From assembly GCA_964016885.1 (NCBI GenBank), contig OZ024740.1:208940001-209004000 (forward strand): 64,000 bases of DNA, read 5' to 3'. Each line of letters starts with the position of its first letter. Positions within the stretch are counted from its first letter, which is position 1. The notes under the pieces are model-generated. The model had not been told where the DNA came from and made no database searches. It saw only the letters and a program-made list of their open reading frames with translations. Below are positions 262 to 61,615 of the stretch, piece by piece. Position numbers and translations under genes: made by a program. Source of the stretch: Eledone cirrhosa. Its lineage: Eukaryota.

Positions 262-509
262 TTTTCTTTATTAACCACAAGGGTTTACATAAAGTAGACA
301 TTAAGGACAGTGCAGGACAATATAGGACGGTACAAATGGGCATTTCTGCGTGTAAAAAAACAAAAACAGAGGATGTAACAAAAAAATAACAATGAAAAAT
401 TCCCCAATAGGGGGGAGACTTCGGAGGGACATTTGTGAAGAAAGCCCAGTAAAAGGCCACAGTGACCCTGACCACCAGGGCAAGTGCCCTCTCCCAGTTT
501 TCCACCTGT

Positions 510-3500
510 TGGGAAGTGCTCTCTTCCCAACAAAATGCTGGGAAGAGAGCACTTCCCTCTCTACTCTGATTTTCCTTTTCAAATGAAATTTGAAAAAGTC
601 AATCAGGGCATCACCGAAGAGGTAAGTGCTCGTCTTCAGCCCTTTCAAACGTGTCCACCATACTATCTCTTTCGCCATGGCCACCAGACAGATAAAAACT
701 GCCTGCCCTTCCCGGCTAAAGGAAGAGGGCGGGGCAATCCTCACAATGGACTCAGATGATAGCCGGATCCGTCCTGCACGCGACAGCAAGTGTTCGACAT
801 AAACCCACAAGTCAGCAATTTTCGGACACTGGACGAGTGCGTGCAGGACGGTTTCGTCGCCCTGCGCGCATCTCGGACATGCCCGGCTGACGGCACCTCC
901 ATTCCTGTAGAGTTTATCCCGAACTGGCAAGGCTCCTCGGTAGCACTGCCAGGCCAGGGATTTCTGGAAGTTGTCCATAGGCCCCGGCCCGAAAGTTCTT
1001 CCGAAGAGAATAGCTAGTTGATTTTCGTCGACGCCTAGAGTTTCCCCAAGTACGTCGTCGCTCTTCCCCTCCACTAATCCTCTATAGAACGCCGAGGTGG
1101 AGTTTCCACCGATCACATTGCCCGATTGGTCGAGGGCTGTGAGCACCTGAAAACATTCCAGTCTCCAAGCGCTCCCTCTCGGTCTTCGCTTGACCCAGGA
1201 CTGCAGCTCCGTCAAGGAAACGAGCTGAGGAAAAACGCGTCTAGCAAACGGCGACCACACCTGATCACCGTTGAGGAAGAGGTGGAGATGTAGCCAGAGC
1301 GCGTGCCTGCGCATCATCAGCCACGGCATGCCCAGCTCTCCACGTAGCGGGTGTTGACAACAGATGGACTGCCTGACCATCGGAGCGCGTCCCTTCCACA
1401 AAAAGCGAAAGAGCAAACGCTCCAGCGCAGTCAGGCGAGGCTTAGGACAAAGTACGACGGTCAGGCGGTAGCAGATGACAGACACGATGTACGCGTTAGC
1501 CACCTCCGCTCGACCTTTCAGGAATAGCTTCCTCTCCGCCCATTTCTGGCTGAGAGAAGCCACCCTGCTCGTTACCTCGTCCCAGTTTTTGTCCGTCTGG
1601 AGGTCCGGACCGAACCAGACCCCTAGCAATTTAACCGGTCCGTCCGTCCAGCGTCCGACGACGCTTTTGGACGGCATGGATCTACCTCTCCAGGTGCCGA
1701 GCTGCAGGCCCACTGACTTTTCCTGGTTGATCATTGCTCCTGTCAACGCTTCGTATTCTCTTAGTGTAGTACCGATCGCCTCGATGTGTTTGGCGTTCGA
1801 CACCACTACGGTGACATCGTCCGCATATGCTGACACGGATCTTCCGCATCCTAGTTCGCGCGGGACGCCCCTCAACGTCTCCAGTTTGTGCAGTAATGGC
1901 TCGAGAGTCAATACGTACAAGAAGGACGAGAGGGAGACATCCTTGGCGGACCGAGCGCATGATGTTGAACGGTTCCGAAAGGTGACCGTTCACTCTCACC
2001 ACAGAGCAGATGTCGCTGTGCATGGCAGCGATCCAGCCTCTGAAGACGGGTCCAAAGCCAGCCGCCCTCAGGACTGCCGCTAGGTAACGATGGTCGACCC
2101 TATCGAAAGCTTTCTACTGATCTAAATTGATCAAGGACCCACCCGTGCCAGGTACCCTAGCTACCCTTTCTACGATGTATCACATGAGGTGAAGGTTGTC
2201 GTGGATGGATCTGTCGGGAATGGCGCATGTCTGCGCCTCTCCCACCAGACCACCAACGACAAGCGCCAACCTCTTTGCTAGCACCTTGGCCAAAATCTTG
2301 AATTCTGTGTTTAGCAGAGTTATGGGCCTGAAATTATCTATGTTATCCCCCTAGTTCGGATCCTTTCTCAGCAGCACCACCGCACCTCGGCTCACAGAGC
2401 TGGGAATTCTCCCGTTCTGTTGCCAGTTGCAGTAGACTTCCGCCAAGAGGCCTCCGAACAAGTCTGGCATCTGTACGTAAAGTTCATAGGGCAGACCATC
2501 CAAATCAGGCGATTTACCCCTTGTGCAGCCAGTCATTGCCTCCCTTACTTCAGCGGCTGTTATCGGCTTTTCGCAACACTTCGCCTCAGTGGCCGAGAGC
2601 CGCGGCAGTCCGTCGAGGTAGACACTAAAGTCCATCCCTCGACCCGGCCCACCGCTGCCCCCGAACAGCTGAGCGAAGTGTCGCTGAAAAGCTTCACACA
2701 TTTGCCCGGGATCGAGTAGCATGCGCCCTTCGTGGTCCACCAAAGACCGGATTGTGGCTTTGTTGCCACGACGCGCCTCCGCCACTCGGGCCCATTGAAC
2801 GGCTTTCGTCCCCTCGTGTCTGAGAGCACGCACCCTTGCTCTGACAACGCAGCCTTCGTGCTTTGCATTGAAGAATTGGTCAAGGGCCAATTTCGCCGCA
2901 AGCACGTCGGTCGCAATGCCTTTGCTAAGCGCCTCGTCTAATTTTCTAACTAGTTCTCCCTCTGCTCTATTTTTCTCTATTGCTAAAGCCTTACTAAACC
3001 TAATTTATTCTATTCTAATCACTCTTTTCAGAGCAAACCACCACTTGTTGTTGACGATGGCCCCCGTCAACGCCCGCTTAACTAGTTCGCTAATCCGGTC
3101 TCTGTAGGCCTTGCGCGCTGGTAAGGACGCGTTTAGCTTCCAGTAGCCGGGTCCTCGTCTATGAAGCCTATCTAAGTCAAGCACACAGATCACGAATTTG
3201 TGGTCCGTGTAGCTGACTATCTTGAATTGTGGACAGCCTATGCTAGACCTATCTATTTCCCTACAAAATACTCTATCTAGATATGATCTGGATGACCCTA
3301 CGCTATTTGTCCAAGTCCACATTGGCACATTAGGGAAATCCAATCGGTACCTGTCAGACAGTTCAAAACGCCTGAGCAGGTTGGTGAGGCTCTTGCACCC
3401 TCCACCCCTATCCGCTAATCCCACACAGTCCCAGCGTGCATCTAAGATCCCGTTCCAGTCGCCCACTAACACTAAAGAGCGGGACGTTCCAAGAAAGGTC

Positions 3501-3879
3501 TCAAGACGCCGGAAGAAATCAGGCCGCCCTGCTCCTGTCGGGGCATAGACGGCCACTAGCCTGAAAGCTTGCCCGTCTCCGCTGGTCACGTCCAGCACCA
3601 CCAGCTTACTCTCTGGGTCCAGAAAGATGGCCCGTATGGCGAGATCCAAACCTCTCCGAAAAAGCACAGCAACTCCTCCCCCGATCCAGGACGGCTGGGA
3701 GATGCGTACACATCGTAGCCGCCGAAGATCGGTGCGAAGGCCCGTGCTTCGGAGATTCTGGTCTCGCTGATGGCCACTACATCTATGTTTAGTGACCTGA
3801 GGTCGTTGAGCAGGTGACCCTGCTTCCATGACGACCCCAAGCCACGCGCATTTATGCTGCCTCGTCTGAGTGAGGTCAT
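510..3879 (-). pseudogene. Tx1 ORF2 (APE endonuclease-reverse transcriptase), stops/frameshifts
   Basis: Fragments SINARGL/ISET, GDWN, YLDRVF, TDH, GYWKLN, SVRQGC, AYADD, CPRCAQGDETVLHALVQC in ORFs 3586-3990, 3005-3829, 2351-2905, 1682-2023, 301-1920. Confidence 0.9.
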
Positions 3880-3914
3880 GTTTAAAATAGAGTGGAAAAG
3901 ATGGGAAAGACCAC

Positions 3915-6010
3915 TTACCGTACTTTTGGTAGAGGAGGGATGGTTTTTACATCCCTTTTCACTTGATCGTCTGGTGAAGGGACCGTTCAATCGTCCCTTC
4001 GGCTGGTCGTCGGCTCTTCTATGAGTATGTCCGAATATACTCTTCGATTGATAGTTCCTCCTAGGTCCCTGAAATCACCAACTGCGTTGGGGAATTTCGT
4101 TTTAATGTTTGTGTATTGTTTCTGTGCTATTTTTAGCAGTCTTATGTTAGTTGGCATTTTGATTGGTGCTGGTATTATGTAGTCGTGTTGTGAAATGTAT
4201 GTGTGTTCAATTATGTAAGTCATTAGTTTCTTGTTGTGTGTATTTATTGCCGTGCATTTGTTTTTCTGAGGGTGGGTGTGGTTCTGCTATTTTCTTGTCG
4301 TTGTTGCTGGGTGTGTGTGTTTTGTTGTTGTGTTTGCGATGTTGGTGCTTGTGGTGGTGGTGTTGAAGGTGTTGTTGGCGGTGGGATTGTCGCCGGTGGT
4401 GATGGTGGTGCTAGTGTGGGTGGTGATGGTGTTGGTGGTGTTGCTGCTGTGAGTCTCTTTGCAGTAGACTTTACCCTTTTCTCATTTCTTTCCACCCTTT
4501 TCAAAGGCGACGATGCGCTGCTTCTGCGTTTGTGCCTTCTTACGACCTTTTGCCATCCCTCTCCCACCTCACACTCCATGTCTGATTCTGTGAGGTCGGG
4601 GAGGGGTACCAGCTCCACTCTTTCACTTGTTGTTGTTGGTGATGTTTGCACTGGAGTCTCTGTTGCAGCTGCATTTGGTATTGCTGTTGTTGTTGTTAAT
4701 ATTTCCACTGCTGCTGCTGTTTTTGATTTCCGTGGAGTGGGTATGGGTGCCACAGACCCATCGTTCTTGGTTGCCGCTTGTCCTGTTGCTGGTAGCCGTG
4801 GAGCCGGTTTCGGAAGGAGGGGTTTTCTCCTTTCTCAGGGTCTTCTCGTTGCAGAAGGCCCTGAGGTGAGTCTTCGATCCACAGCGAAAGCATTTCGGGC
4901 GTTTGCCCTCAACACTTATGGGCAGTTGAGTGCCGTTATCGAAGTCAATCACATCCGGGATAGCTTCGATGCACTCCTGGTTGGTTTGGATTAACATCTC
5001 AATGGAGGTACCGACCCAATCTTCTCTTACTTTTTTCTGTACTTGCAGTACAGTTGTTTTGTCCTCGATTCCGACGAGGACAGACGCGGCCAGCCAAGAA
5101 GGGGCCATCCCGGGGGGGGGACGTGGGTCAGTTTGACCCTCACAATTTTTTGCCCGCAGTAGGAGGGCACCAACACCATTTCCTCGCTCCTTAGGGTCAC
5201 TACGGAATGAGCCTTTGCCTCCTGGGGTGTGGCAAAAAGTACGTCTACGGTGGCATATTTTTTGCCTCGGGTGATGTGCGTTTTCCGCTGCCACACAGAC
5301 CCCAAGGCTTTTTGTATTTGAGTCTCTGTGGCTCTTTCAACCCTACGGGATTTTGTACTTACTGTACGGTACGTGACCGTACAGTGTTGTTGGGTTTCGA
5401 AAATTTTTTCCGCTGCCTTGCAGATTGCTCGGTGTCCAGTCTTTGTCACCATCTTCTTCGCTTCCTCTAATTCCTCATTTGTTATGAGGATTGTTTCCAG
5501 GTTCTTCGCAATACCTGCAAACGAGATTGGTTTTTCTTTGCTGCTGTTGTTGTTGTCGTCAGAGATGCTGTTACTTTTGTTGTTGCTGCAGGTACTACGA
5601 CTACTGCCTCCGCCGCTGTTGCTGTGGTTGTTGTTGGTGTTGCTGCTGCTAATGCTGTTGTTGTTTATGCTGCTGGTGATGCTGTTGCGGCTGCTACTGT
5701 TGTTTTCATTGTCACTGTTGCTGTTGTTATTACGGCTGCTACTGCTATTATTCCTGACGTCAGACGAATGAAATGGGTTTTCGTATTTCCCGCACACCTG
5801 TTTCGTCGTTGTCGTCGTCGTCGTGGAGAAATCTTGCACGCTTTGCACGAGACTTTTCTTTTCTGTCGTCGCTTGTGAAAGAGAAGGGAGGGAGAGAGAC
5901 ACATTTAAAGAAGGGAGGGAGAGAGACAATCTTCTCTCTGCTGTAGTGATGATTGAGGAAGAAGACGGAATGAGTGGGAGTGACCTATGAAAATTCTTTT
6001 TCGTAGCCAT
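3915..6010 (-). pseudogene. Tx1 ORF1 (Asn/Ser-rich, CCHC zinc knuckle, Pro/Thr-rich), frameshifted
   Basis: MATKKN start at 6010, CFRCGSKTHLRAFC knuckle, stop about 35 nt before the ORF2 ATG. Confidence 0.85.
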
Positions 6011-6226
6011 GTTGTTTTTTTTGTTTAAAATAAATATTGGGCACAAAACCCCAATAAGCAGTTATTTAACCCCGAAGGGCCAAATAACGGGCAGAACGAC
6101 CCCTCTCACGAGGAGGAGGGTGTTTTTCTCTACAAGTTCGTTAAAGTTTTAAACAATTTACAATTGTTATAGCGTTCAAAATTTACAATACCTTACAGAG
6201 CCGAGCCTCCGTCAACCATAGCATTA

Positions 6227-6259
<33 letters not shown>

Positions 6260-6645
6260 CTGGTGGTTGTGGACAAAGAAAAAAGATCGTGCCTGATTGT
6301 GGATGTGGCCTGCCCATTCGACACGAGAGTGCAAGAGAAGGAGAGGGAGAAAATTAACCGATACCAGGACTTAAAGTGGGAGGTAAAAAGGATTTGGAAC
6401 TGCCATGAAGTCAAAGTGATCCCGATTGTCATAGGCGCACTAGGTACTATCTCAAAAAGTTTCCAGGGATGGTTAAAGAAAATTGGCCCCTTCACGCTTT
6501 TTGGAACGCTTTAAAAGGCATGCTTGCTGGGAACAGCAAGAACCCTCCGATACGTCCTGAATATCTGAGGCTGCAGGTAGTGGCTTGATATTCATTTCAA
6601 CAAACTTTCCAGTTAAATAATATCAATGACTGAGACTCAAAGAGT
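6260..6645 (+). mobile_element. 3' fragment of an R4/Dong-like RLE non-LTR element
   Basis: VVDKEKRSCLIVDVACPFD...EKINRYQDLKWEVKRIW...VIPIVIGALG restriction-like endonuclease motif; ends in (AAC/AAT)n. Confidence 0.8.
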
Positions 6646-6675
6646 AATAACAACAACAATAATAATAATAATAAT

Positions 6676-9170: not shown

Positions 9171-9381
9171 GTTTACAACACCAATAATATCAATAACAAC
9201 AATAACATCAATAACATTTGATGTTATTGGTGTTGTTGATGATGATGTTCATGTTTAGCTTTAGGTCAGTCTTGACAGAGCAATCTATAATGATAGGCGG
9301 ACATAAGTGTCAAGCTCTTCAAGAAACCATTGGTAAATGAATTAATTATCTTATGTTGATTACTATATATAATATATATAT

Positions 9382-9810
9382 ATATCAATGATATTAATAA
9401 ATGGAAACTATATTTATAAAAACCATATTTATTCTATTATATTTATTTCAAGGGTACCAAAACTTTGGTACGCTCTCATCAGATAAAATACAAAGTTTGT
9501 TTTATAAATAGTGACATACCCAGGAATCAGACCTTAACGGTTCAAGTTCCGTCTGGATAGTCAGACGGAACTTGAACCGTTAAGGTCTGATCCCTGGGTA
9601 TATCACTATTTATAAAACAAACTTTGTATTTTATCTGATGAGAGCGTACCAAAGTTTTGGTACCCTTGAAATATATATAATAGAATAAATATGGTTTTTA
9701 TAAATATAGTTTCCATTTATTAATATCATTGATATTAATAAATTTGTCGAGTTCTTCGAATCTGTTATAAATATATTTGTTGAATTACCAACAAATTAAA
9801 TATCCCTTTG

Positions 9811-9812
<2 letters not shown>
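9382..9812 (+). mobile_element. Palindromic PLE pseudo-LTR-like element (about 174-bp arms + 75-bp tail) in (TA)n
   Basis: Arms 9382-9555 / 9562-9735 nearly perfect; hammerhead core in each arm; tail similar to 37560-37660. Confidence 0.75.
9627..9687 (+). ncRNA. Minimal type I hammerhead ribozyme
   Basis: TATTTTAT-CTGATGA-[GAGCGTACCAAA GT TTTGGTACCCTT]-GAAA-TATATATA-ATAGAATA; stem I pairs, AUA cleavage triplet. Confidence 0.8.
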
Positions 9813-9860
<48 letters not shown>

Positions 9861-9861
<1 letters not shown>

Positions 9862-10349
9862 GGGATAACAGATTATTGTTATAGGTAGTCCACTTAGGTG
9901 TAGTCCAGTTAGGGTACTCCGAGTAGTGGATGGTATCAACGTTGGCTAAGTTTGACTCAACAAGGTGTTTCCATAGTGATGTTGCGAGTACGCCGTGATT
10001 TCTATGTTGTTAACACTTGGAGTAATGATAAATCAAAAAAGAAGAGTGACACGGTTTGCTATACAATAAGGGCTTTAATCACATTGCTGACAATTGTTTC
10101 TCTGAACTGGTAGGTCTAGAGATCGCTACTCGCCTGTTTCTGCGTCAATCGATCACCAATACATAGTTATAACCTCGTTATAAGCTCGCAAGATCTGATG
10201 AATTGACTGGTTATAACTATGTATTGGTGATCGATTGACGCAGAAACAGGCGAGTAGCGATCTCTAGACCTACCAGTTCAGAGAAACAATTGTCAGCAAT
10301 GTGATTAAAGCCCTTATTGTATAGCAAACCGTGTCACTCTTCTTTCTTG

Positions 10350-10353
<4 letters not shown>
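9861..10353 (-). mobile_element. (TA)n-flanked element with 145-bp inverted repeat, PLE pLTR-like
   Basis: Arms 10030-10174 / 10209-10353; GAAAC-AATT-GTC hammerhead 3' half; second copy 35407-35735. Confidence 0.6.
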
Positions 10354-10435
<82 letters not shown>

Positions 10436-25441: not shown

Positions 25442-25489
25442 ATAATTATTAATAGTGTATTATTATTATTATTATTATTATTATTGTTA

Positions 25490-25891
25490 TTACTCTTTGA
25501 GTCTCAGTCCTTGATGTTAATTAACAGGAAAGTTTGTTGAAATGAATATCAAGCCACTACCTGCAGCCTCAGATATTCAGGACGTATCGGAGGGTTCTTG
25601 CTGTTCCCAGCAATCATGCCTTTTGAAGCGTTCCAAAAAGCGTGAAGGGGCCAATTTTCTTTAACCATCCCTGGAAACTTTTTGAGATAGTCCCTAGTGT
25701 GCCTATGACAATCGGGATCACTTTGACTTCATGGCAGTTCCAAATCCTTTTTACCTCCCACTTTAAGTCCTGGTATCGGTTAATTTTATAATATCGGTTA
25801 ATTTTCTCCCCCTCCTTCTCTTGCACTCTCGTGTCGAATGGGCAGGCCACATCCACAATCAGGCACGATCTTTTTTCTTTGTACAAAACCA
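25490..25891 (-). mobile_element. R4/Dong-like RLE 3' fragment (paralog of 6260-6645)
   Basis: ORF 25614-25892, with a small KINRY tandem duplication. Confidence 0.8.
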
Positions 25892-26127
25892 ATTATTATT
25901 ATTATTATTATTGAATGCTATGGTTGACGGAGGCTCGGCTCTGTAAGGTATTGTAAATTTTGAACGCTATAACAATTGTAAATTGTTTAAAACTTAGACC
26001 AACTTGTAGACAAAACACCCTCCTCCTCGTGAGAGGGGTCTTTCTGCCCGTTATTTGGCCCTTCGGGGTTAAATAACTGCTCATTGGGGTTTTGTACCCA
26101 ATATTTATTTTTAACAAAAAAAACAAC

Positions 26128-28238
26128 ATGGCTACGAAAAAGAATTTGCATAGGTCACTCCCACTCATTCCGTCTTCTTTTTCCTCAATCGTCACTACAG
26201 CAGAGAGAAGATTGTCTCTCCCTCCCTTCTTTAAATGTGTCTCTCTCCCTCCCTTCTCTTTCGCAAGCGACGAAAGAAAAGAAAAGTCTCGTGCAAAGCG
26301 TGCAAGGTTTCTCCACGACGACGACGACAGCGACGAAACAGGTGTGCGGGAAATACGAAAACCCAGTTCGTTCGTCTGACGTCGGGAATAATAGCAGTAG
26401 CAGCCGTAATAACAACAGCAACAGTGACAATGAAAACAACAGTAGCAGCCGCAACAGCATCACCAGCAGCATAAACAACAACAGCATTAGCAGCAGCAAC
26501 ACCAACAACAACCACAGCAACAGCGGCGGAGGCAGTAGTCGTAGTACCTGCAGCAACAACAAAAGTAACAGCAGCTCTTACGACAACAACAACAACAGCA
26601 GCAAAGAAAAACCAATCTCATTTGCAGGTATTGCGAAAAACTTGGAAACAATCCTCATAACAAATGAGGAATTAGAGGAAGCGAAGAAGATGGTGACAAA
26701 GACTGGACACCGAGCAATCTGCAAGGCAGCGGAAAAATTTTTCGAAACCCAACAGCACTGTACGGTCACGTACCGTACAGTAAGTACAAAATCCCGTAGG
26801 GTGGAAAGAACCACAGAGGCTCAAATACAAAAAGCCTTGGGGTCTGTGTGGCAGCGGAAAACGCACATCACCCGAGGCAAAAAATATGCCACCGTAGACG
26901 TACTTTTTGCCACACCCCAGGAGGCAAAGGCCCAATCCGTAGTGACCCTAAGGAGCGAGGAAATGGTGTTGGTGCCCTCCTACTGCGGGCAAAAAATTGT
27001 GAGGGTCAAACTGACCCACGTCCCCCCCCCCCCCCCCCGGAATGGCCCCTTCTTGGCTGGCCGCGTCTGTCCTCGTCGGAATCGAGGACAAAACAACTGT
27101 ACTGCAAGTACAGAAAAAAGTAAGAGAAGATTGGGTCGGCACCTCCATTGAGATGCTAATCCAAACCAACCAGGAGTGCATCGAAGCTATCCCGGATGTT
27201 ATAGACTTCGATAACGGCACTCAACTGCCCATAAGTGTTGAAGGAAAACGCCCGAAATGCTTTCGCTGTGGATCGAAGACTCACCTCAGGGCCTTCTGCA
27301 ACGAGAAGACCCTGAGAAAGGAGAAAACCCCCCTCCTTCCGAAACCGGCTCCACGGCTACCAGCAACAGGACAAGCGCCAACCAGGAACGATAGGTCCGT
27401 GGCACCCATACCCACGCCACGGAAATCAAAAACAGCAGCAGCAGTGGAAATATTAACAACAACAACAGCAATACCAAATGCAGCTGCAACAGAGACTCCA
27501 GTGCAAACATCACCAACAACAACAAGTGAAAGAGTGGAGCTGGTACCCCTCCCCGACCTCACAGAATCAGACATGGAGTGTGAGGTGGGAGAGGGATGGC
27601 AAAAGGTCGTAAGAAGGCACAAACGCAGAAACAGCGCATCGTCGCCTTTGAAAAGAGAGGATAGAAATGAGAAAAGGGTAAAGTCTACTGCAAAGAGACC
27701 CACAGCAGCAACACCACCAACACCATCACCACCCACACTAGCACCACCATCACCACCGGCGACAACCCCACCGCCAACAACACCTTCAACACCACCACCA
27801 CAAGCACCAACATCGCAAACACAACAACAAAACACACACACCCAGCAACAACGACAAGAAAATAGCAGAACCACACCCCACCCCCAGAAAAACAAATACA
27901 CGGCAATAAATACACACAACAAGAAACTAATGACTTACATAATTGAACACACATACATTTCACAACACGACTACATAATACCAGCACCAATCAAAACGCC
28001 AACTAACATAAGACTGCTAAAAATAGCACAGAAACAATACACAAACATTAAAACGAAATTCCCCAACGCAGTTGGTGATTTCAGGGACCTAGGAGGCACT
28101 ATCAATCGAAGAGTATATTCAGACATTCTCTTAGAAGAGCCGACGACCAGCCGAAGGGACGATTCAACGGTCCCTTCACCAGACGATCAAGTGAAAAGGG
28201 ATGTAAAAACCATCCCTCCTCTACCAAAAGTACGGTAA
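26128..28238 (+). pseudogene. Tx1 ORF1, frameshifted near the 5' end and at a poly-C run
   Basis: ORFs 26092, 26084-27151 and 27042-28238; CFRCGSKTHLRAFC. Confidence 0.85.
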
Positions 28239-28273
28239 GTGGTCTTTCCCATCTTTTCCACTCTATTTTAAAC

Positions 28274-31200
28274 ATGACCTCACTCAGAATAGGCAGCATA
28301 AATGCGCGTGGCTTGGGGTCGTCATGGAAGCAGGGTCACCTGCTCAACGACCTCAGGTCACTAAACATAGATGTAGTGGCCATCAGCGAGACCAGAATCT
28401 CCGAAGCACGGGCCTTCGCACCGATCTTCGGCGGCTACGATGCGTACGCATCTCCCAGCCGTCCTGGATCGGGGGGAGGAGTTGCTGTGCTTTTTCGGAG
28501 AGGTTTGGATCTCGCCATACGGGCCATCTTCCTGGACCCAGAGGGTAAGCTGGTGGTGCTGGACGTGACCAGCGGAGACGGGCAAGCTTTCAGGCTAGTG
28601 GCCGTCTATGCCCCGACAGGAGCAGAGAGGCCTGATTTCTTCCGGCGTCTGGAGACCTTTCTTGGGACGTCCCGCTCTTTAGTGTTAGTGGGCGACTGGA
28701 ACGGGATCTTAGATGCACGCTGGGACTGTGTGGGATTTGCGGATAGGGGTGGAGGGTGCAAGAGCCTCACCAACCTGCTCAGGCGTTTTGAACTGTCTGA
28801 CAGGTACTGATTGGATTTCCCGAATGCGCCAATGTGGACTTGGACAAATCGCATAGGGTCATCCAGATCATATCTAGATAGAGTATTTTGTAGGGAAATA
28901 GATAGGTCTAGCATAGGCTGTCCACAATTCAAGATAATCAGCTACACGGACCACAAATTCGTGATCTGTGTGCTTGACTTAGATAGGCTTCATAGACGAG
29001 GACCCGGCTACTGGAAACTAAACGCGTCCTTACCAGCGCGCAAGGCCTACAGAGACCGGATTAGCGAACTAGTTAAGAGGGCGTTGACGGGGGCCATCGT
29101 CAACAACAAGTGGTGGTTTGCTCTGAAAAGAGTGATTAGAATAGAATCCATTAGGTTTAGTAAGGCTTTAGCAATAGAGAAAAATAGAGCAGAGGGAGAA
29201 CTAGTTAGAAAATTAGACGAGGCGCTTAGCAAAGGCATTGCGACCGACGTGCTTGCGGCGAAATTGGCCCTTGACCAATTCTTCAATGCAAAGCACGAAG
29301 GCTGCGTTGTCAGAGCAAGGGTGCGTGCTCTCAGACACGAGGGGACGAAAGCCGTTCAATGGGCCCGAGTGGCGGAGGCGCGTCGTGGCAACAAAGCCAC
29401 GATCCGGTCTTTGGTGGACCACGACGGGCGCATGCTACTCGACCCCGGGCAAATGTGTGAAGCTTTTCAGTGACACTTCGCTCAGCTGTTCGGGGGCAGC
29501 GGTGGGCCGGGTCGAGGGATGGACTTTAGTGTCTACCTCGACGGACTGCCGCGGCTCTCGGCCACTGAGGCGAAGTGTTGCGAAAAGCCGATAACAGCCG
29601 CTGAAGTAAGGGAGGCAATGACTGGCTGCACAAGGGGTAAATCGCCTGGTTTGGATGGTCTGCCCTATGAACTTTACGTACAGATGCCAGACTTGTTCGG
29701 AGGCCTCTTGGCGGACGTCTACTGCAACTGGCAACAGAACGGGAGAATTCCCAGTTCTGTGAGCCGAGGAGCGGTGGCACTGCTGAGAAAGGATCCGAAC
29801 AAGGGGGATAACATAGATAATTTCCGGCCCATAACTCTGCTAAACACAGAGTTCAAGATTTTGGCCAAGGTGCTAGCAAAGAGGTTGGCGCTTGTCGTTG
29901 GTGGTCTGGTGGGAGAGGCGCAGACATGCGCCATTCCCGACAGATCCATCCAGGACAACCTCCACCTCATGCGATACATCATAGAGACGGTAGCTAGGGA
30001 ACCTGGCACGGGTGGGTCCTTGATCAATTTAGATCAGTCGAAAGCTTTCGATAGGGTCGACCATCGTTACCTAGCGGCAGTCCTGAGGGCGGCTGGATTT
30101 GGGCCCGTCTTCAGAGGCTGGATCGCTGCCATGCACAGCGACATCTGCTCTGTGGTGAGAGTGAACGGTCACCTGTCGGAACCGTTCAACATCATGCGCT
30201 CGGTCCGCCAAGGATGTCCCCTCTCGTCCCTCTTGTACGTATTGACTCTCGAGCCATTACTGCACAAACTGGAGACGTTGAGGGGCGTCCCGCGCGAACT
30301 AGGATGCGGAAGATCCGTGTCAGCATATGCGGACGATGTCATCGTAGTGGTGTCGAACGCCAAACACATCGAGGCGATCGGCACTACACTAAGAGAATAC
30401 GAAGCGGTGACAGGAGCAATGATCAACCAGGAAAAGTCAGTGGGCCTGCAGCTCGGCACCTGGAGAGGCAGGTCCATGCCGTCCAACAGCGTCGTCGGAC
30501 GCTGGACGGACGGACCGGTTAAATTGCTAGGGGTCTGGTTCGGTCCGGACCTTCAGACGGACAAAAACTGGGACGAGGTAACGAGCAGGGTGGCTTCTCT
30601 CACCCAGAAATGGGCCGAGAGGAAGCTATCCCTGAAAGGTCGAGCGGAGGTGGCTAACGCGTACATCGCGTCCGTCATCTGCTACCGCCTGACCGTCGTA
30701 CCTTGTCCTAAGCCTCGCCTGACTGCGCTGGAGCGTTTGCTCTTTCGCTTTTTGTGGAAGGGACGCGCTCCGATGGTCAGGCGGTCCATCTGTTGTCAAC
30801 ACCCGCTACGTGGAGGGCTGGGCATGCCGTGGCTGATGATGCGCAGGCACGCGCTCTGGCTACATCTCCACCTCTTCCTCAACGGTGATCAGGTGTGGTC
30901 GCCGTTTGCTAGACACGTATTTCCCCAGCTCGTTTCCTTGACGGAGCTGCAGTCCTGGGTCAAGCGAAGACCGAGAGGGAGCGCCTGGAGACTGGAATGT
31001 CTTCAGGCGCTCACAGCCCTCGACCAATCGGGCAATGTGATCGGTGGAAACTCCACCTCGGCGTTCTATAGAGGATTAGTGGAGGGGAAGAGCGACGACG
31101 TACTTGGGGAAACTCTAGGCGTCGACGAAAATCAACTAGCCAATCTCTTCGGAAGAACTTTCGGGCCAGGGCCTATGGACAACTTCCAGAAATCTCTGGC

Positions 31201-31690
31201 CTGGCAGTGCTACCGAGGAGCCTTGCCAGTTCGGGATAAACTCTACAGGCATGGAGGTGCCGTCAGCCGGGCATGTCCGAGATGCGCGCAGGGCGACGAA
31301 ACCGTCCTGCACGCAATCGTCCCGTTTCTGAAAATTGCTGACTTGTGGGTTTATGTCGAACACCTGCTGTCGCGTTTAGGACGGATCCGGCTATCATCTG
31401 AGTCCATCGTGAGGATTTCCCCGCCCTCCTCCTTTAGCCGGGAAGGGCAGGCAGTTTTTATCTGCCTGGTGGCCATGGCGAAAGAGATAGTATGGTGGAC
31501 ACGTTTGAAAGGGCTGAAGACGAGCACTTACCTCTTCGGTGATGCTCTGATTGACTTTTTCAAATTTCATTTGAAAAGGAAAATCAGAGTAGAGAGGGAA
31601 GTGCTCTCTTCCCAGCATTTTGTTGAAAGATGGGTGAGAGAAGCAAGTATGGCCCGAATGAATGGGCCTACTCTGAGTATATATCTGTAA
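28274..31690 (+). pseudogene. Tx1 ORF2 (APE-RT), one frame with two in-frame TGA stops
   Basis: ORFs 28274-28810, 28811-29473 and 29519-31690 are in frame; NFRPITLLN, DQSKAFDRVDH, RQGCPLS, YADD. Confidence 0.92.
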
Positions 31691-32019
31691 ATTAAAGGTG
31701 GAAAACTGGGAGAGGGCACTTGCCTTGGTGGTCAGGGTCATTGTGGCTTTTTACTGGGCTTTCACCACAAATGTCCCTCCGAAGTCTCCCCCCTATTGGG
31801 GAATTTTTCATTGTTATTTTTTTGTTACATCCTCTGTTTTTGTTTTTTACACGCAGAAATGCCCATTTGTACCGTCCTGCATTGTCCTGCATTGTCCTTA
31901 ATGTCTACTTTATGTAAACCCTTGTGGTTAATAAAGAAATCATTATTATTATTATTATTTTTTTTTATTTTTTTTTTTTATTGTTACTATTATTATTACT
32001 TTTTTTTTTTTTCCAATTC

Positions 32020-35406: not shown

Positions 35407-35409
<3 letters not shown>

Positions 35410-35735
35410 GGTAACAAATTATTGTTATAGGTAGTCCACTTAGGTGTAGTCCAGTTATGGTACTCCGGGTAGTGGATGATATCAACGCTTGGCTAAGTTT
35501 GACTCAACAAGGCGTTTCCTAGTGATGTTGCGAGTACGCTGTAATTCCTTGGAGTAATAATAAATCAGGAAAGAAGAGTGACACGGTTTGCTATACAAAA
35601 AAGGTTTTTAATCTCATTGTCGACAATTGTTTCTCTGAACTGGTAGGTCTAGAGATCGTTATCCGCTTATTTTCACGTTAGTCGATCGTCAATACAAAGT
35701 TATAACCAGTCAGTTCACCGGAGCTTGCGAGAATG
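35407..35735 (-). mobile_element. Single-arm copy of the 9861-10353 element
   Basis: Colinear with 9861-10174; abuts (TA)n. Confidence 0.7.
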
Positions 35736-37318: not shown

Positions 37319-37659
37319 TATACATGTACACACGCACAAACACATGCATGCATATATACACGTGCGTGTGTGTGCGTATAAACATATAGGCAGACAAACA
37401 ATAAATACACACACGCTCGCAGGTGGGAGTATAAAAAGGGGGTACCAAAAAATTAAAGGGTATACTCACAGATCCATGCGCAAAAAAAAAAAAATTTATA
37501 TAAAAAATATAAATACGCAAACATACAAAAAATACACACACACACACACATACACACTACATTTATCAATATCAATATTACTCCAGGTTGAGTGCTTCGA
37601 ATCAGTTATAAATATATATATTTTTGTTGAATAACCAACAAATTATATATCCCTTTGCT

Positions 37660-38219: not shown

Positions 38220-38560
38220 TCGTTGGTGTGATAATCCAGCTAAAAAGTAGATGCGATTTCAGGTGCGGACAACATCTAAAGATCTCGGTCTTAGAGTTGA
38301 GACAAGTGGGAGGGATTTTCAAGTTTCGGAGAAATCTGAATTTTTCCGTAGTACACAAAGACCATTTCTTTGCGCTCCTTTGGTATTCTCTTGAATGGTC
38401 TAAAATAGACCAATCAATATTGTACGGAATGTTTTTGTCTTTAAACTACCACGCTTTATTTGCCAGCGCCGTTGCTGTTCTTTTTTCAGGGTGTTTGAAA
38501 GAAGCGCCATGTGCATAGTACCTGGTTTTAAATCTGTCCTGAGTCATGCCAACATATCGC
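38220..38560 (-). pseudogene. PLE GIY-YIG endonuclease 3' fragment
   Basis: YVGMTQDRFKTRYYAH..SF...LCTTEK...LNSKTEIFRCCPH. Confidence 0.75.
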
Positions 38561-39339: not shown

Positions 39340-40646
39340 AAGAATGGTATTTAACTAATGTATTGGTACGCGATGGGGCCCACCCACGGCCCCGGTGGAC
39401 AGAATGGAGAAGGCGTTTCCCCGGAAGACGGCAAGGGAGACGCGCTGGAAAAGCCACTCCAACTCGCGGTGCTCACACCTGCGGCTGGCCAGCTCAGCAC
39501 CTATGGTGGTGAGTAAGGAGGTAGCCCTGGGGCCGAGGACACCAGAAGTTTCCACTGCCAGAGGAACGACCGCAAACCTGTCGGAGAGCGACCGGTATTT
39601 GAGGAGTTTGGCCCCCTCAGCCCGACGTGCAGCAGAACCTGGGTCAGTCGCAGACTGCACCAGATTGCGGCTGCAGAAAGTTTCGGTGCAAGTGGCATCC
39701 CAGACGAGGGGTTTGCCACCGCGAAACGGGAAGATGGTCATGCCATCTGGCCTTTTGCCGTCCCCTCGATCCAGCCCCACCGGCTCGAGCTGGGAAGGAA
39801 AGCCTGCAGCGTCCAAGCCATGCTTAATGACCTCGTTGAGGGCAGTATGGCGTGGAATGCAGCCGGCACTGTGGCGACAGAAAAGCGGGTGGAGGCGGAA
39901 AGAGTCCACGGTGGAACCACAGCGACATTGGTGTGGCTGGCAGATCCGGAGGCCGAGCCTCAGGGAAACGCCGATTCGCAGACTATGGTTGTCTAGCTGC
40001 GAGCCAGTGGAGAAGAAGGGCAGAGCATGGAGCCAGGCACCACTGTGGGGTTTGGAGGCCGCACGAAAACAAGCAAGGCGGTGCTGGTCGAGCTGGCGCG
40101 TGAGCCTGTCTGCGGCCAGGCTGCACTGGATGGCATCCCAAGTGCGTTGGGGGGACTTGACGTCAACAGGGGGAGAAGGAGGAGGGACGTCTACTGGGCT
40201 AAGTCCAGGCCGGTCCCACGTCTCACAGGAAGCCTCACGTTCTCTGAACACAGAGGGTTCTGTTGTGTTTTGAAGAACCCTGCTGACGAGGACGCGGCAC
40301 GAGGTTACCGACGAAAGATACGCCGGCAAAGCTAGTGAGATCGGGGACCGGAGGCCTAGGCCGCCATACCTGACCGGTAAAGTGGCCGGTTGCCACCCTA
40401 TGTCGTCAAACTTGACGTTGCATATTCCCTCGGCTGCTGCTCGGATACAAGTATCGAGGCCAGCGAGGAGAGATTTCTGGGTGTAGCATGGAGCGCTGCG
40501 GAGTGTATAGAGGAGTTTCGGCATGGTGAAGCAGTTCCTCAGCAGAAAGAGAGCTGGGTGGCCGTCAATCAAGCCCAGTCGGCTCGTGTGAGTCTGGAGC
40601 TGTTGAAGCCTGGACCTGATGGTGGAGCGGAGGGCCGGCGGGTGGT
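39340..40646 (-). mobile_element. CRE-clade RLE non-LTR element, 5'-truncated
   Basis: LPVRYGGLGL, SGAWLHALP, C.CG...H...C...RH..LN, DGKRPDG..IFPF..GKPLVWDATC. Confidence 0.85.
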
Positions 40647-40722
40647 TCACCGAAGTTAAGCAACGTAGAGCCTAGTTAGTACTTAGATGGGTGACCGCTT
40701 GGGAAACCTTGGTGCTGTAAGC
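40647..40722 (+). pseudogene. 5'-truncated 5S rRNA pseudogene (3' about 76 nt)
   Basis: tcaccgaagttaagcaacgtagagcctagttagtacttagatgggtgaccgcttgggaa...gtgctgtaagc matches the 5S box A/box C region and 3' end. Confidence 0.88.
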
Positions 40723-40724
40723 AT

Positions 40725-46456: not shown

Positions 46457-46701
46457 GTAGAATTCCCAAAACTAATCAGATCAGAGCAAACAGCACGGAC
46501 ACTCTATCTCAAAATTATTTTTGAAAAGCATTTAGAAATGCGCAACCGGTAAAAACTTAAAAACTTAAAACCACAACTGAATACTAACCCATACAATCAC
46601 TAATACTCTTTTATTCCTAATTAAACCATTTTTCAACTGTGAACAATTTGTCAGCATTTTCTATTCCGTTTACCAATATATATATATATATATTATAATA
46701 T

Positions 46702-47277
<576 letters not shown>

Positions 47278-49685: not shown

Positions 49686-49977
49686 GAAACTTCTTTGTGT
49701 AAAACTTTATATATATATATATATATATTTGAAAATTAGGTAATAACATGTGCTTACGCCGTATTTGACTAAATAGAATTAGTCTGTTGTGATTTTTAAA
49801 AAAACCCTCTGAATGGAAAAATGGAAGAGTATTGATGTACATGGAACACAAAACATATCTTTGGTTTGCCGTACCAATGTGTTACCATTACTCCAACACG
49901 CCACCCATGCTTCCTTCCATTCAATTAGAGGCTATGTAACCATAGAAGGTGTATATATATATATATATATATAAATA

Positions 49978-50261
49978 AGGAGACACAAAGCAGGCTTTGT
50001 TTAGAAATGGCTAGCGAATCTGAAAATTAGGCAGTAACATGTGCTTACGCCGTATTTGACTAAATAGAATTAGTCTGTTAGTTGGGATGTGGGTTCATGT
50101 CCCATGTACGTCAATACTCATCCTTTTTTCCATTCAGAAGGTTTTTTAAAATCCAAACTAACAGACTAATTCTATTTAGTCAAATACGGCGTAAGCACAT
50201 GTTACTACCTAATTTTCAAATTCGCTAGTTGTTTGTAAACAAAACATGCTTTGTGTCTCCC
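49978..50261. repeat. (TA)n-flanked element with about 105-bp terminal inverted repeats; partial third copy at 49730-49850
   Basis: ggagacacaaagca...tagtctgttagt and its reverse complement. Confidence 0.75.
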
Positions 50262-50394
50262 TATATATATATATATATATTTATTAAAATAACAGATTAA
50301 AGTTTAAGCAAAGAATCGGTGCTTTCACCTTTAACGGGATCTTCTGAAACTTATCGAGCCCTCTTTGGATTTTAGTCTTCAAATTTATTATTAT

Positions 50395-56533: not shown

Positions 56534-58538
56534 ACATATATTTATATATCCCTCTGTAATTCTTAAAAATTTACAAACACAAGCATACACAGACATACAG
56601 ACAATGTAGTTCATGTATCAGTTAGATTGCTAGAATAAGTAGTTTGGTCCCCAATCACAAGATCCTGCGTTGTAACGTTATATTTGTCACTGTAAATAGT
56701 TATTTCTCCAAATTTATTTAGACATTTAATCCTGGTAGTTTGTTCTATTTCATTTGTACATATATGCTGAACATTTGTAATTACTCTCCGTTCTCCAATT
56801 AAAGCGGGGACATTTGCTTACGTTCTTATAAGCGGGTTGGGGGAATCAGTAATTGTATAGTGTACGTTAGTAAATATGGGATTTCTTGTAATGCTCTTTT
56901 TTTTTTCGTTATATATGTTTTTTTTAACGTAAAATAGAATTCTAATTAGATTCTCCAGCTACTATATCGACATGATTCACTTATAATGGGGGGGGGGGGG
57001 GGGGGATTATTCAAGACCTAAGAGTATATCCTTCAAATGAATTATCAAAATATCAGGATTTTAATCTTTAATCAGTTCCAGGTGTCAGCAAACAACATAA
57101 ACTATAGGTTTCTCTTATACAAAAAATAAATTTACTAAAGCGCAAAATTTCCAGTTTGTATGATTGTACATATACCCAGTAATCTTGGTATATACGGCAT
57201 ACCAATCCTCGACTCCAAAAATGAAATACGTTCAACACTATTGTCATCATTATTGACGACACTAGTTCACTAGTTTAGAAGAATAGACGAATGTTGTAGT
57301 TTACCCGAAATATTTTAGGAGACAAAATTATGTATGTATAATGTATGCACTTAAAGTTTGGTTTTCAAAAAGCAATGGGGTTCACAAAGAATACCAAACA
57401 TTGAGTCATTGCACCTGTATGAAAGATTTATGTAGTTCTAACATTTCCTTAAAATAAACCCTGTTCTAGATATACAAAACAACAGGATAGTCACGGCTGG
57501 ATTGATTTTGTTCATAGGTTTGCTCTATCAGGGCTTATTTTGGATACATCGTTAGCTTGTCAGGGTCAATCCCTCACCAAGATATACAAAGGGAAGGAGT
57601 TTAGCTCTATGTTGCAAGCTAACAGAGCTAATTGTTATTACTTTTGTTTAGAGAGACCAAGGAATAGTTCCTAACCTGTGGTATCTATTAACAGTTAGTT
57701 GAGCTGGACTATTTTAAAGTGATGTGTCATGGCTAAGGGTACAATACAGTGCCAAAGACAGAACATAGACCACCAACCTGCCTGTTGGTTCTCCAGTATT
57801 CTTATCCATTCGGTCATGGTGATGGGGGCCTGCTCGAATTATTTTCGTTGTGGATAAAGTTTTGTTGCTTTAGTTGACACCTCTCACTTGCAATGTCCTT
57901 TTGATATACAGACTGGTTTCATTTGATGTCCCCCACAGGAAGATTGAACATAACTAATGAGTGTTGTTGTTGTTGATGATAATGATGTTGTTGCTCTTGT
58001 TGTTTAACCCTGCATGGTTTGGTTGCTATTTCTAGCAGATCGAGAACTTATTTAAATGTGAGTCGTAGAAGTGAATCTAAGGATTCTTTTTTTTTTTTTT
58101 TTCTAAATAAAGGTCACACTAATTTTGTATTCCACGTTAAAGTATTTTACACAGTTGCATCGAAAGGATTAAGAAAAACTTTTATCACCGAGCGTTGTAA
58201 ATGCATAATCCGTACTTATCCGGCATTAACGGCAAATATTAACTACATATAACAGGATTAATATTTTTTTACTGACATTCTGAATATTAAAGAATTATTT
58301 TCGGGGATTAAAAGAAATTTTCCCGTAAATCTATCGGTTTTTACTTATATATTTATACATCATAGATATGTCTCAGTTTGTGTTGGGGGAAGGATGTGAG
58401 TTGTGTGCTAGTGCCTCTGTGTCTATGGGAGTGAGTGGTTGAGGGGTATGTTGATAATTTCGTCTCTAATCCAACTGTTAAAGTTCAGCGACAATAATAT
58501 TGCATTAAAAGAAAAGATTGTTGTAACAAGACCTGTGC

Positions 58539-59816
58539 AAAGCTGGTAGTAGGCACTGGCTACATACGAAATGTAGGCCTTCAAAGTTGGTTGTAGACCC
58601 AGACATGATCTGAATTGTAGGCCTCCAAAGCTGGCAGTAGGGCCAGACTGGATGAGAAATGTAGGCCTTCAAAGTTGGTTGTAGACCAGACATGATCTGA
58701 ATTGTAGGCCTCCAAAGCTGGCAGTAGGGCCAGACTGGATGAGAAATGTAGGCCTTCAAAGTTGGTTGTAGACCCAGACATGATCTGAATTGTAGGCCTC
58801 CAAAGCTGGCAGTAGGGCCAGACTGGATGAGAAATGTAGGCCATCAAGGTTGGTAGTAGACCCAGACATGATCTGAATTGTAGGCCTCCAAAGCTGGCAG
58901 TAGGCCCAGACTGGATGAGAAATGTAGGCCATCAAGGTTGGTAGTAGACCCAGACATGATCTGAATTGTAGGCCTCCAAAGCTGGCAGTAGGCCCAGACT
59001 GGATGAGAAATGTAGGCCATCAAGGTTGGTAGTAGACCCAGACATGATCTGAATTGTAGGCCTCCAAAGCTGGCAGTAGGCCCAGACTGGATGAGAAATG
59101 TAGGCCATCAAGGTTGGTAGTAGACCCAGACATGATCTGAAATGTAGGCCTCCAAAGCTGGTAATAGGCCCAGACTGGATGAGAAATGTAGGCCATCAAG
59201 GTTGGTAGTAGACCCAGACATGATCTGAAATGTAGGCCTCCAAAGCTGGTAATAGGCCCAGACTGGATGAGAAATGTAGGCCTTCAAAGTTGGTAGTAGA
59301 CCCAGACATGATCTGAATTGTAGGCCTCCAAAGCTGGCAGTAGGCCCAGACTGGATGAGAAATGTAGGCCATCAAGGTTGGTAGTAGACCCAGACATGAT
59401 CTGAAATGTAGGCCTCCAAGCTGGCAGTAGGCCCAGACTGGATGAGAAATGTAGGCCATCAAGGTTGGTAGTAGACCCAGGCCAGATCTGAATTGTAGGC
59501 CTCCAAGCTGGCAGTAGGCCCAGACTGGATGAGAAATGTAAGCCATCAAGGTTGGTAGTAGACCCAGACATGATCTGAAATGTAGGCCTCCAAAGCTGGT
59601 AATAGGCCCAGACTGGATGAGAAATGTAGGCCATCAAGGTTGGTAGTAGGCCCAGGCCAGATCTGAAATGTAGGCCTTCAAGGTTGGTAGTAGACCCAGG
59701 CCAGATCTGAAATGTAGGCCTTCAAAGTTGGTAGTAGGCCAGACTGAATGTGAAATATAGGCCTTCAAAGCTGGTAATAGGCCGAGGCCAGATCTGAAAT
59801 GTAGGTCCTCAAAGCT
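58539..59816. repeat. Minisatellite, 88-bp unit made of two related 44-bp monomers
   Basis: aaatgtaggccatcaaggttggtagtagacccagacatgatctg + aattgtaggcctccaaagctggcagtaggcccagactggatgag, about 12 dimers. Confidence 0.95.
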
Positions 59817-59884
59817 GTGCCTTCTATCCAATGCGTATTTAAAGCTATTAGGACATAGTTAAGATTGTGTTAACATACTTAATA

Positions 59885-61156: not shown

Positions 61157-61615
<459 letters not shown>

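Follow-up and report, generated by a model that had tools for sequence, protein, structure and literature searches.

Head-to-head palindromes in (TA)n tracts of Eledone cirrhosa as probable insertion by-products of Penelope-like elements

The 64,000-nt stretch of the Eledone cirrhosa genome analyzed here (contig OZ024740.1, positions 208,940,001 to 209,004,000; hereafter the window) contains two palindromes with hammerhead motifs on both strands. Their presence raises the question of whether the palindrome is itself a replicating unit and, if not, how it is formed. A sequence-only reading of this DNA had described each palindrome as (TA)n, a near-perfect inverted repeat, a one-sided tail, and again (TA)n, and on re-measurement both are built in exactly this way, with (TA)n on either side (Table 1). 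Element 1 has arms of 174 bp with 3 mismatches (9382-9555 and 9562-9735) and a tail of 77 nt. Element 2 has arms of 159 bp, also with 3 mismatches (46829-46987 and 46988-47146), and a tail of 96 nt; its palindrome is centred, without a spacer, on A+1/A+1, where A+1 denotes the A of an initiator-like (Inr-like) TCACT. The two elements had been said to share one architecture despite little primary similarity. The architecture is indeed shared, but they are distant relatives: when arm and tail are aligned globally, 159 of 275 columns agree, and the hammerhead block is conserved.

Table 1. Features of the two palindromic elements in the window
Feature	Positions	Strand	Remarks
Left-hand (TA)n flank of element 1, short and interrupted	9364..9381	.	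by sequence
Element 1 (F1), tail-less inverted pLTR arm	9382..9561	-	outer end is the family's fixed pLTR/tail boundary; inner end is the A of Inr-like TCACT (9561)
Element 1, left-arm hammerhead motif	9430..9490	-	predicted cleavage at 9438; a single change affects stem III/loop
Element 1, tail-bearing pLTR arm	9562..9735	+	starts 6 nt downstream of the Inr-like A
Element 1, right-arm type I hammerhead motif	9627..9687	+	stem I of 8 bp, long stem II containing a C-C mismatch, stem III palindromic; cleavage predicted after 9679
F1 tail	9736..9812	+	in ORF-bearing copies, precedes by about 50 nt the 5' ORF region that served as query
Right-hand (TA)n flank of element 1, common to the adjoining F3 element	9813..9860	.	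by sequence
Left-hand (TA)n flank of element 2, interrupted	46677..46828	.	by sequence
Element 2 (F2), tail-less inverted pLTR arm	46829..46987	-	inner end is the Inr-like A
Element 2, left-arm hammerhead motif	46873..46935	-	predicted cleavage at 46885
Element 2, tail-bearing pLTR arm	46988..47146	+	starts exactly at the Inr-like A
Element 2, right-arm type I hammerhead motif	47040..47102	+	12-bp stem I; predicted cleavage after 47090
F2 tail	47147..47242	+	by family comparison
Right-hand (TA)n flank of element 2	47243..47274	.	by sequence

A type I hammerhead descriptor gives exactly four matches in the window, one per arm, against a mean of 0.03 and a maximum of 1 match in 100 block-wise dinucleotide shuffles of the same DNA. 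On the plus strand it places the cleavage sites where they had been predicted earlier, after 9679 and after 47090. The left-arm hammerheads had been called near-identical mirror copies of the right-arm ones; the motif is present in both left arms, but in element 1 it departs from the mirror copy in the region of 9443 (TAAATA for TATATA). Element 2 carries a minority variant of its own family, because stem III of F2 reads TATGTA in 42 motifs and TATATA in 3. In an Rfam scan of the window at E<=1, none of the 150 matches listed (out of 156) is to a hammerhead family, and the matches that cover the two elements were rejected as chance microRNA-hairpin likenesses. Stem II covaries across related families through compensated changes. 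Among these, several further families represented by L014, L128, L141, L146, L149, and L151 have stem I and the core in common, differ in stem II with compensation, and carry a palindromic stem III of TATATA, TATGTA, or TGCGCA. The hammerhead is thus present in the F1 and F2 pLTRs as a motif, that is, as a predicted ribozyme.

Both palindromes belong to high-copy families. With the right arm and tail of element 1 (family F1) as query, the 3.0-Gb genome yields 2122 first-look candidates, and with those of element 2 (family F2) it yields 1588; the 40 scored copies are 91-94% (F1) and 96-98% (F2) identical. Genomic copies reach further 5' than the arms seen in the window, and one F1 copy has the coding end of a GIY-YIG domain upstream of the arm. 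When this coding end served as the query, the F1 arm was found downstream on the same strand in 25 of the 30 loci fetched, the query's own locus included, mostly 1.1-1.4 kb away. For F2, EN-coding remains lie upstream on the same strand in three of the four extended loci examined. The parent ORFs of the two families are about 49% identical, as judged from the F2 locus L062, where an ORF from the RT thumb to the EN survives in pieces with an interrupted frame. At loci fetched with the F1 ORF start, a pLTR or tail directly precedes the ORF in 23 of 30 cases, which is the usual partial tandem of Penelope-like elements (PLEs). Thus, both arms are tied to PLE ORFs elsewhere in the genome and the proposed PLE origin stands, whereas the notion of a separate ORF-less family has to be given up: each element is the 3' end of a high-copy PLE with coding long copies.

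These data support the assignment of F1 and F2 to EN+ PLEs with an RT plus, C-terminally, a GIY-YIG domain. The protein identity of the ORFs rests on motifs; a Pfam search with four ORF pieces gave no supporting match (one DUF at E=0.095 only), and a PDB sequence search with one RT piece gave 0 matches. Near-full-length F1 copies show the motif order RLRW, SDKT, QMDI, MGS, YRDD, CxCX5C linker, GIY-YIG, and in the copy L099 the RT motifs QMDI, MGS, and YRDD are followed by IYKC..NYIG. The position of the EN C-terminal to the RT follows from the motif order in L099 and L100, and the tblastn order agrees. In the F1 copies DKT replaces DKG (SDKT in L100 and L101, SHKT in L099), and the N-terminal RWK position reads RLRWR in L100 and L101 and RLRWC in L099. 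The CxCX5C linker is present in L099 and L101 of F1 and in L062 of F2. The CxxC..E..N..CxH arrangement is found in L062, and the same Hydra-clade mark recurs in the translations of L081 and L093. The 3' flank is TA-alternating in 60 of 60 copies of the two families, in line with the (TA)n insertion that is a trait of this clade.

By these motifs, F1 and F2 appear to carry the marks of the Hydra clade, for which the available text of Craig et al. (2021, PMC8557442) names, among others, a C-terminal EN, hammerheads, and (TA)n insertion. The likeness extends to the C-terminal GIY-YIG EN, DKT, the CxCX5C linker, the CxxC and CxH pairs around conserved E and N, the pLTR hammerhead, and (TA)n targeting. 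Compared with the clade as described there, the residue after RW in the three F1 copies is R or C instead of K, the tails measure about 80-100 nt instead of 30-40, and the elements exceed the usual length of below 3 kb because of a 3' untranslated stretch of 1.2-1.5 kb. The Naiad clade, with an N-terminal EN and without a canonical hammerhead, was rejected since here the EN is C-terminal and hammerheads are present. Non-LTR retrozymes (bioRxiv 10.64898/2026.07.22.740005, as far as its accessible text describes them) are likewise short hammerhead-bearing sequences derived from PLE pLTRs. However, they are non-autonomous units arranged head to tail in tandem without a link to an ORF, whereas F1 and F2 arms are joined head to head and are colinear with ORF-bearing copies; this class was also set aside.

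Several features of the layout are already published, namely the inverted pLTR, the one-sided tail, TA targeting, and opposite-strand hammerhead pairs. PLE insertion units, in the parts of Craig et al. (2021, PMC8557442) and Arkhipova et al. (2013, PMC3846280) that treat them, have a head-to-head inverted pLTR with a tail on one arm, small palindromes at the junction, and an Inr-like TCACT in the pLTR. Unlike those units, both arms of the elements in the window are cut down to the pLTR, and the inner ends pile up at TCACT; the thousands of copies available here permit end statistics, while the target-site duplication is unreadable within (TA)n. The truncated PLEs of Cervera and de la Pena (2014, PMC4209133), as presented in the available text, resemble F1 and F2 in having one hammerhead on each strand, separated by about 100-700 bp, and a palindromic stem III that implies cleavage as a dimer. 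Those pairs are described for Schistosoma; stem I of F1 and F2 is longer (8-12 bp), and the short palindromic stem III is present. The supplements of PMC8557442 may already list F1 and F2.

If the palindrome replicated as a unit, the fold-back point would be the same in all copies, and this test had been set in advance by the sequence-only reading. Among copies picked by tail sequence only, an adjacent inverted arm is present in 14 of 30 F1 and 21 of 30 F2 cases. The outer end of the tail-less arm lies within 1 nt of one fixed position, the pLTR/tail boundary, in 16/21 F1 and 23/29 F2 arms. The junction coordinates, on the contrary, all differ, in 21 of 21 F1 and 29 of 29 F2 cases, so that all 50 sampled junctions are distinct. 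The samples are the best-scoring copies rather than random draws (51 distinct loci per family out of 60 after removal of duplicates between sets), and end positions were called automatically, with a noise of several nucleotides at palindromic junctions. The gaps between arms mostly fall within -12..+12, small hairpins occur at many junctions, and the same layout is seen with arms of up to a kilobase, of which either one may be the long arm.

Thus, the palindrome does not replicate as a unit. The varying fold-back points identify the palindromes as insertion by-products of autonomous PLEs rather than a family of mini-elements, and elements 1 and 2 themselves are ordinary PLE debris. The recurrence of one central junction might still speak for a replicating mini-element, in the strong form suggested earlier or as a foldback or MITE-type DNA element: the A+1/A+1 junction of F2 occurs at 12 loci. 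The six of these that were fetched belong to different subfamilies, each with one tailed and one tail-less arm, and such recurrence is expected of independent events that stop at a common site. The exact F1 junction of element 1 is found at two loci genome-wide, the second of which is built differently. Together with the many copies that lack an adjacent inverted arm and the position of the tail outside the inverted repeat, this makes whole-palindrome replication extremely improbable. MITEs and foldback DNA transposons have inverted repeats at both termini and a fixed internal structure. The tail outside the repeat, the distinct junctions, and the many single-armed copies led us to reject them.

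The inner ends of the arms are variable without being random. In both families, and for both arms, they pile up at or just downstream of A+1, whose distance from the 3' end is 262 nt in F1 and 258 nt in F2. The bin from -8 to +16 around A+1 holds the 5' ends of 12 of 30 tailed arms in each family, against 1.8 (F1) and 1.4 (F2) expected from the downstream stop rate, whereas the interval from -150 to -26 holds 0 and 2, respectively; sets obtained with 253-nt queries, being biased to long tailed arms, were left out of these counts. The tail-less arms behave similarly, with 11/21 F1 and 17/29 F2 ends in the same bin. Genome-wide, exact 23-mers just inside the site number 2063 versus 777 that span it, so that about 62% of the F2 arms that reach the site stop there, a figure based on exact-match counts uncorrected for sequence variation. 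In the window, A+1 is the exact centre of element 2 and also the base at which the left arm of element 1 ends. The 3' splice-site reading of a pyrimidine tract before the F1 arm start was rejected, as the ends cluster at A+1 and not after CAG.

A+1 is a likely candidate for a transcription start, judging by the likeness of its motif: TCACT is an initiator-like motif in a rotifer PLE pLTR according to the available text of PMC3846280, and PLE promoters are internal, in the pLTR, in the portions of PMC2377424 and PMC8557442 that describe them. A TATAAG lies 29 nt upstream of A+1 in F2; F1 has none. When contigs of two sequencing runs are compared with an F2 stretch, the summed depth in X1 rises about 20-fold in the bin with A+1, and loose TA ends are seen at the pLTR/tail boundary. 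This rise was not counted as support, since contig depth is not copy number and the runs may come from the assembly's own sample.

The observations to be explained are the linkage to ORFs, the fixed outer ends, the variable junctions, the pile-up at TCACT, and the variants common to both arms. We consider it probable that each palindrome consists of two 3'-end pieces of a PLE joined head to head in (TA)n and likely derived from two separately primed cDNAs. In such a scenario, the RT-endonuclease would nick both strands of (TA)n, and each nicked 3' end would prime a cDNA, one at the tail end and the other at the pLTR end. The template would be a linear RNA beginning at the pLTR start site; both cDNAs would reach its 5' end within 160-260 nt and run off, or would stop before it, and would then be joined, either by short overlaps or by small additions. 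That both outer ends are fixed is accounted for by two primings. The closest experimental parallel is the Poseidon element PAc of the green anole (Frangieh et al., 2024, PMC11167929), whose protein cuts and extends both target strands and whose reverse transcription starts in vitro at two internal sites bounding the tail. PAc has AT-rich targets, and its two RT starts fit the fixed outer ends seen here. It belongs to a different PLE clade, and the main text of that paper describes neither head-to-head joining nor run-off at a start site.

The main rival scenario is self-priming, in which one strand folds back on itself, for example on an antisense template, and endonuclease resolution removes the tail from one side; the pile-up would then mark a site prone to hairpins or pausing. 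The antisense version of self-priming has been published as a proposal (PMC3846280, in its available text), and many junctions have short hairpins centred at or near A+1. The two scenarios differ in the arm lengths they allow. In 6 of 12 F1 and 7 of 19 F2 insertions it is the tail-less arm that extends further 5', in 4/12 and 4/19 it is the tailed arm, and the arms are near-equal in 2/12 and 8/19. These 10 equal-length cases out of 31, along with the junction hairpins, fit self-priming too. A longer tail-less arm, on the other hand, cannot be produced by folding back of a tailed cDNA, and a long tail-less arm with a short tailed inverted arm is present at 7 of the 30 F1 loci obtained with the GIY-YIG-end query.

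The behavior of long copies also bears on the choice. An intrinsic pause at A+1 should stop ORF-crossing copies as well. Of the F1 copies that cross the ORF and reach this region, one of nine ends there and eight pass, compared with 12 of 16 short arms that end there and 4 that pass (Fisher p=0.004), although the ORF-crossing copies are more diverged and their ends coarser. This argues against an intrinsic pause site. Variants common to both arms agree with two primings as well as with self-priming: both arms of one insertion have 19 of 58 variants in common in F1 and 7 of 41 in F2, as opposed to 5.7% and 1.0% between different insertions. Such variants point to one source locus or one RNA, and could also stem from arm-to-arm gene conversion. 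A comparison of arm identities is uninformative, since no other copy is closer than the insertion's own arm in 8 of 18 (F1) and 4 of 23 (F2) cases. On balance, we regard self-priming as unlikely.

The abundance of copies that start at A+1 suggests yet another origin, namely that the pLTR plus tail is a SINE-like non-autonomous derivative with an internal promoter at A+1, re-inserted in trans with a new junction each time. Non-autonomous PLE derivatives exist, and the internal position of PLE promoters noted above agrees with this possibility. In such a case the short stubs should form a subfamily of their own. No stub-only subfamily is seen among the sampled copies; the stubs are 87-98% identical to long copies, and a variant common in stubs is also found in the inverted arm of the ORF-bearing copy L192. 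A SINE-like unit is therefore improbable.

Returning to two primings, the passage of most ORF-crossing copies through A+1 also means that long copies do not derive from RNA starting at A+1. The full-length template does not simply begin at this site, and one must postulate a further kind of template, namely circular or multimeric RNA. The most specific version of the two-priming scenario, which we put forward only tentatively and hold to be somewhat doubtful, is that most stubs are 'strong-stop-like' run-off cDNAs made from two RT starts near the 5' end of a pLTR-initiated RNA, that long copies come from a circular or multimeric hammerhead-cleaved template, and that the inverted pLTR arises from two primings. 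A literature search of incomplete coverage found no account of PLE run-off at a pLTR start.

The hammerheads in the stubs would be passengers inherited from the pLTR, and cutting by these predicted ribozymes would require a dimer or the help of a protein. Metazoan PLE hammerheads cleave weakly in vitro, as dimers (PMC4209133, as far as its available text reports), while that of the anole PLE cut only with protein and was dispensable for insertion (PMC11167929). It had been proposed that a transcript from either direction would hold the ribozyme behind its own antisense copy, in a dsRNA hairpin that could mask cleavage. For read-through transcripts this agrees with the folds: when folded whole, they reach -283 (element 1) and -245 (element 2) kcal/mol with the hammerhead core fully buried, paired at a probability near 1. 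Masking of the ribozyme in read-through transcripts is thus predicted by folding models and follows from any perfect palindrome. The proposal does not extend to the element's own predicted transcripts. Since the arms lie head to head around the likely promoter, such transcripts would start at the hairpin centre, run outward, and lack an antisense copy before the ribozyme. In folds of transcripts from the likely own start, the closing pair of stem II has a probability of 0.59 (element 1) and 0.97 (element 2), and for isolated arms a structure with hammerhead stems I and II comes within 1 kcal/mol of the optimum.

The end statistics could matter beyond these two loci, because the origin of the inverted pLTR and the role of the hammerhead are stated as open questions in PMC8557442, PMC11167929, and PMC3846280, as far as their available texts go. 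A sharp-ended high-copy family predicts an RNA 5' end at A+1 and another template for long copies, with RT starts downstream of A+1 at 160 and 258 nt in F2 and at about 183 and 262 nt in F1. If the reading with run-off and two templates is true, the thousands of stubs are a fossil map of the transcription start and both RT starts, and the inverted pLTR would be shown to come from two primings. Thousands of near-perfect hairpins of 150-180 bp could, moreover, feed dsRNA pathways if read through.

The window contains further related elements. A third palindrome of the same layout (F3; 9862-10355, minus strand) adjoins element 1 in the same TA tract; it has 147-bp arms, a 34-nt spacer, and a 166-nt tail, and its family gives 3050 first-look candidates, in whose long copies the end of a GIY-YIG ORF shows the motifs CxCX5C, CxxC, and CRH. 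CTGATGA and GAAAC are present in this palindrome, which the type I hammerhead descriptor does not match. An older single-armed F3 copy, 84% identical, lies at 35408-35707, a diverged F1 tail-end fragment (about 80% identical) at 37560-37659, and a related GIY-YIG coding remnant at 38254-38556 on the minus strand (34% identical to an F1 protein piece, E=1e-11). Immediately to the left of element 1, positions 9318-9365 match three other loci at 83-95% and read like the 3' half of another hammerhead-bearing family (L005), so that several families pile into the same TA tracts.

Two local palindromes, one TA-flanked with 125-bp arms (49959-50280) and one with 182-bp arms around a (TG)n centre (61158-61615), give no hammerhead hit and resemble none of the loci compared. 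Other repeats in the window are two copies, in opposite orientation and 90-98% alike, of a long non-LTR retrotransposon that has frames for endonuclease and RT (355-6675 and 25462-31848), and a tandem array (58511-59863) whose 44-nt units show a higher-order period of 88 nt. A 5S rRNA-like match on the plus strand at 40615-40723 scores 39.6 bits, against an Rfam gathering score of 38, and could be a pseudogene or the head of a SINE.
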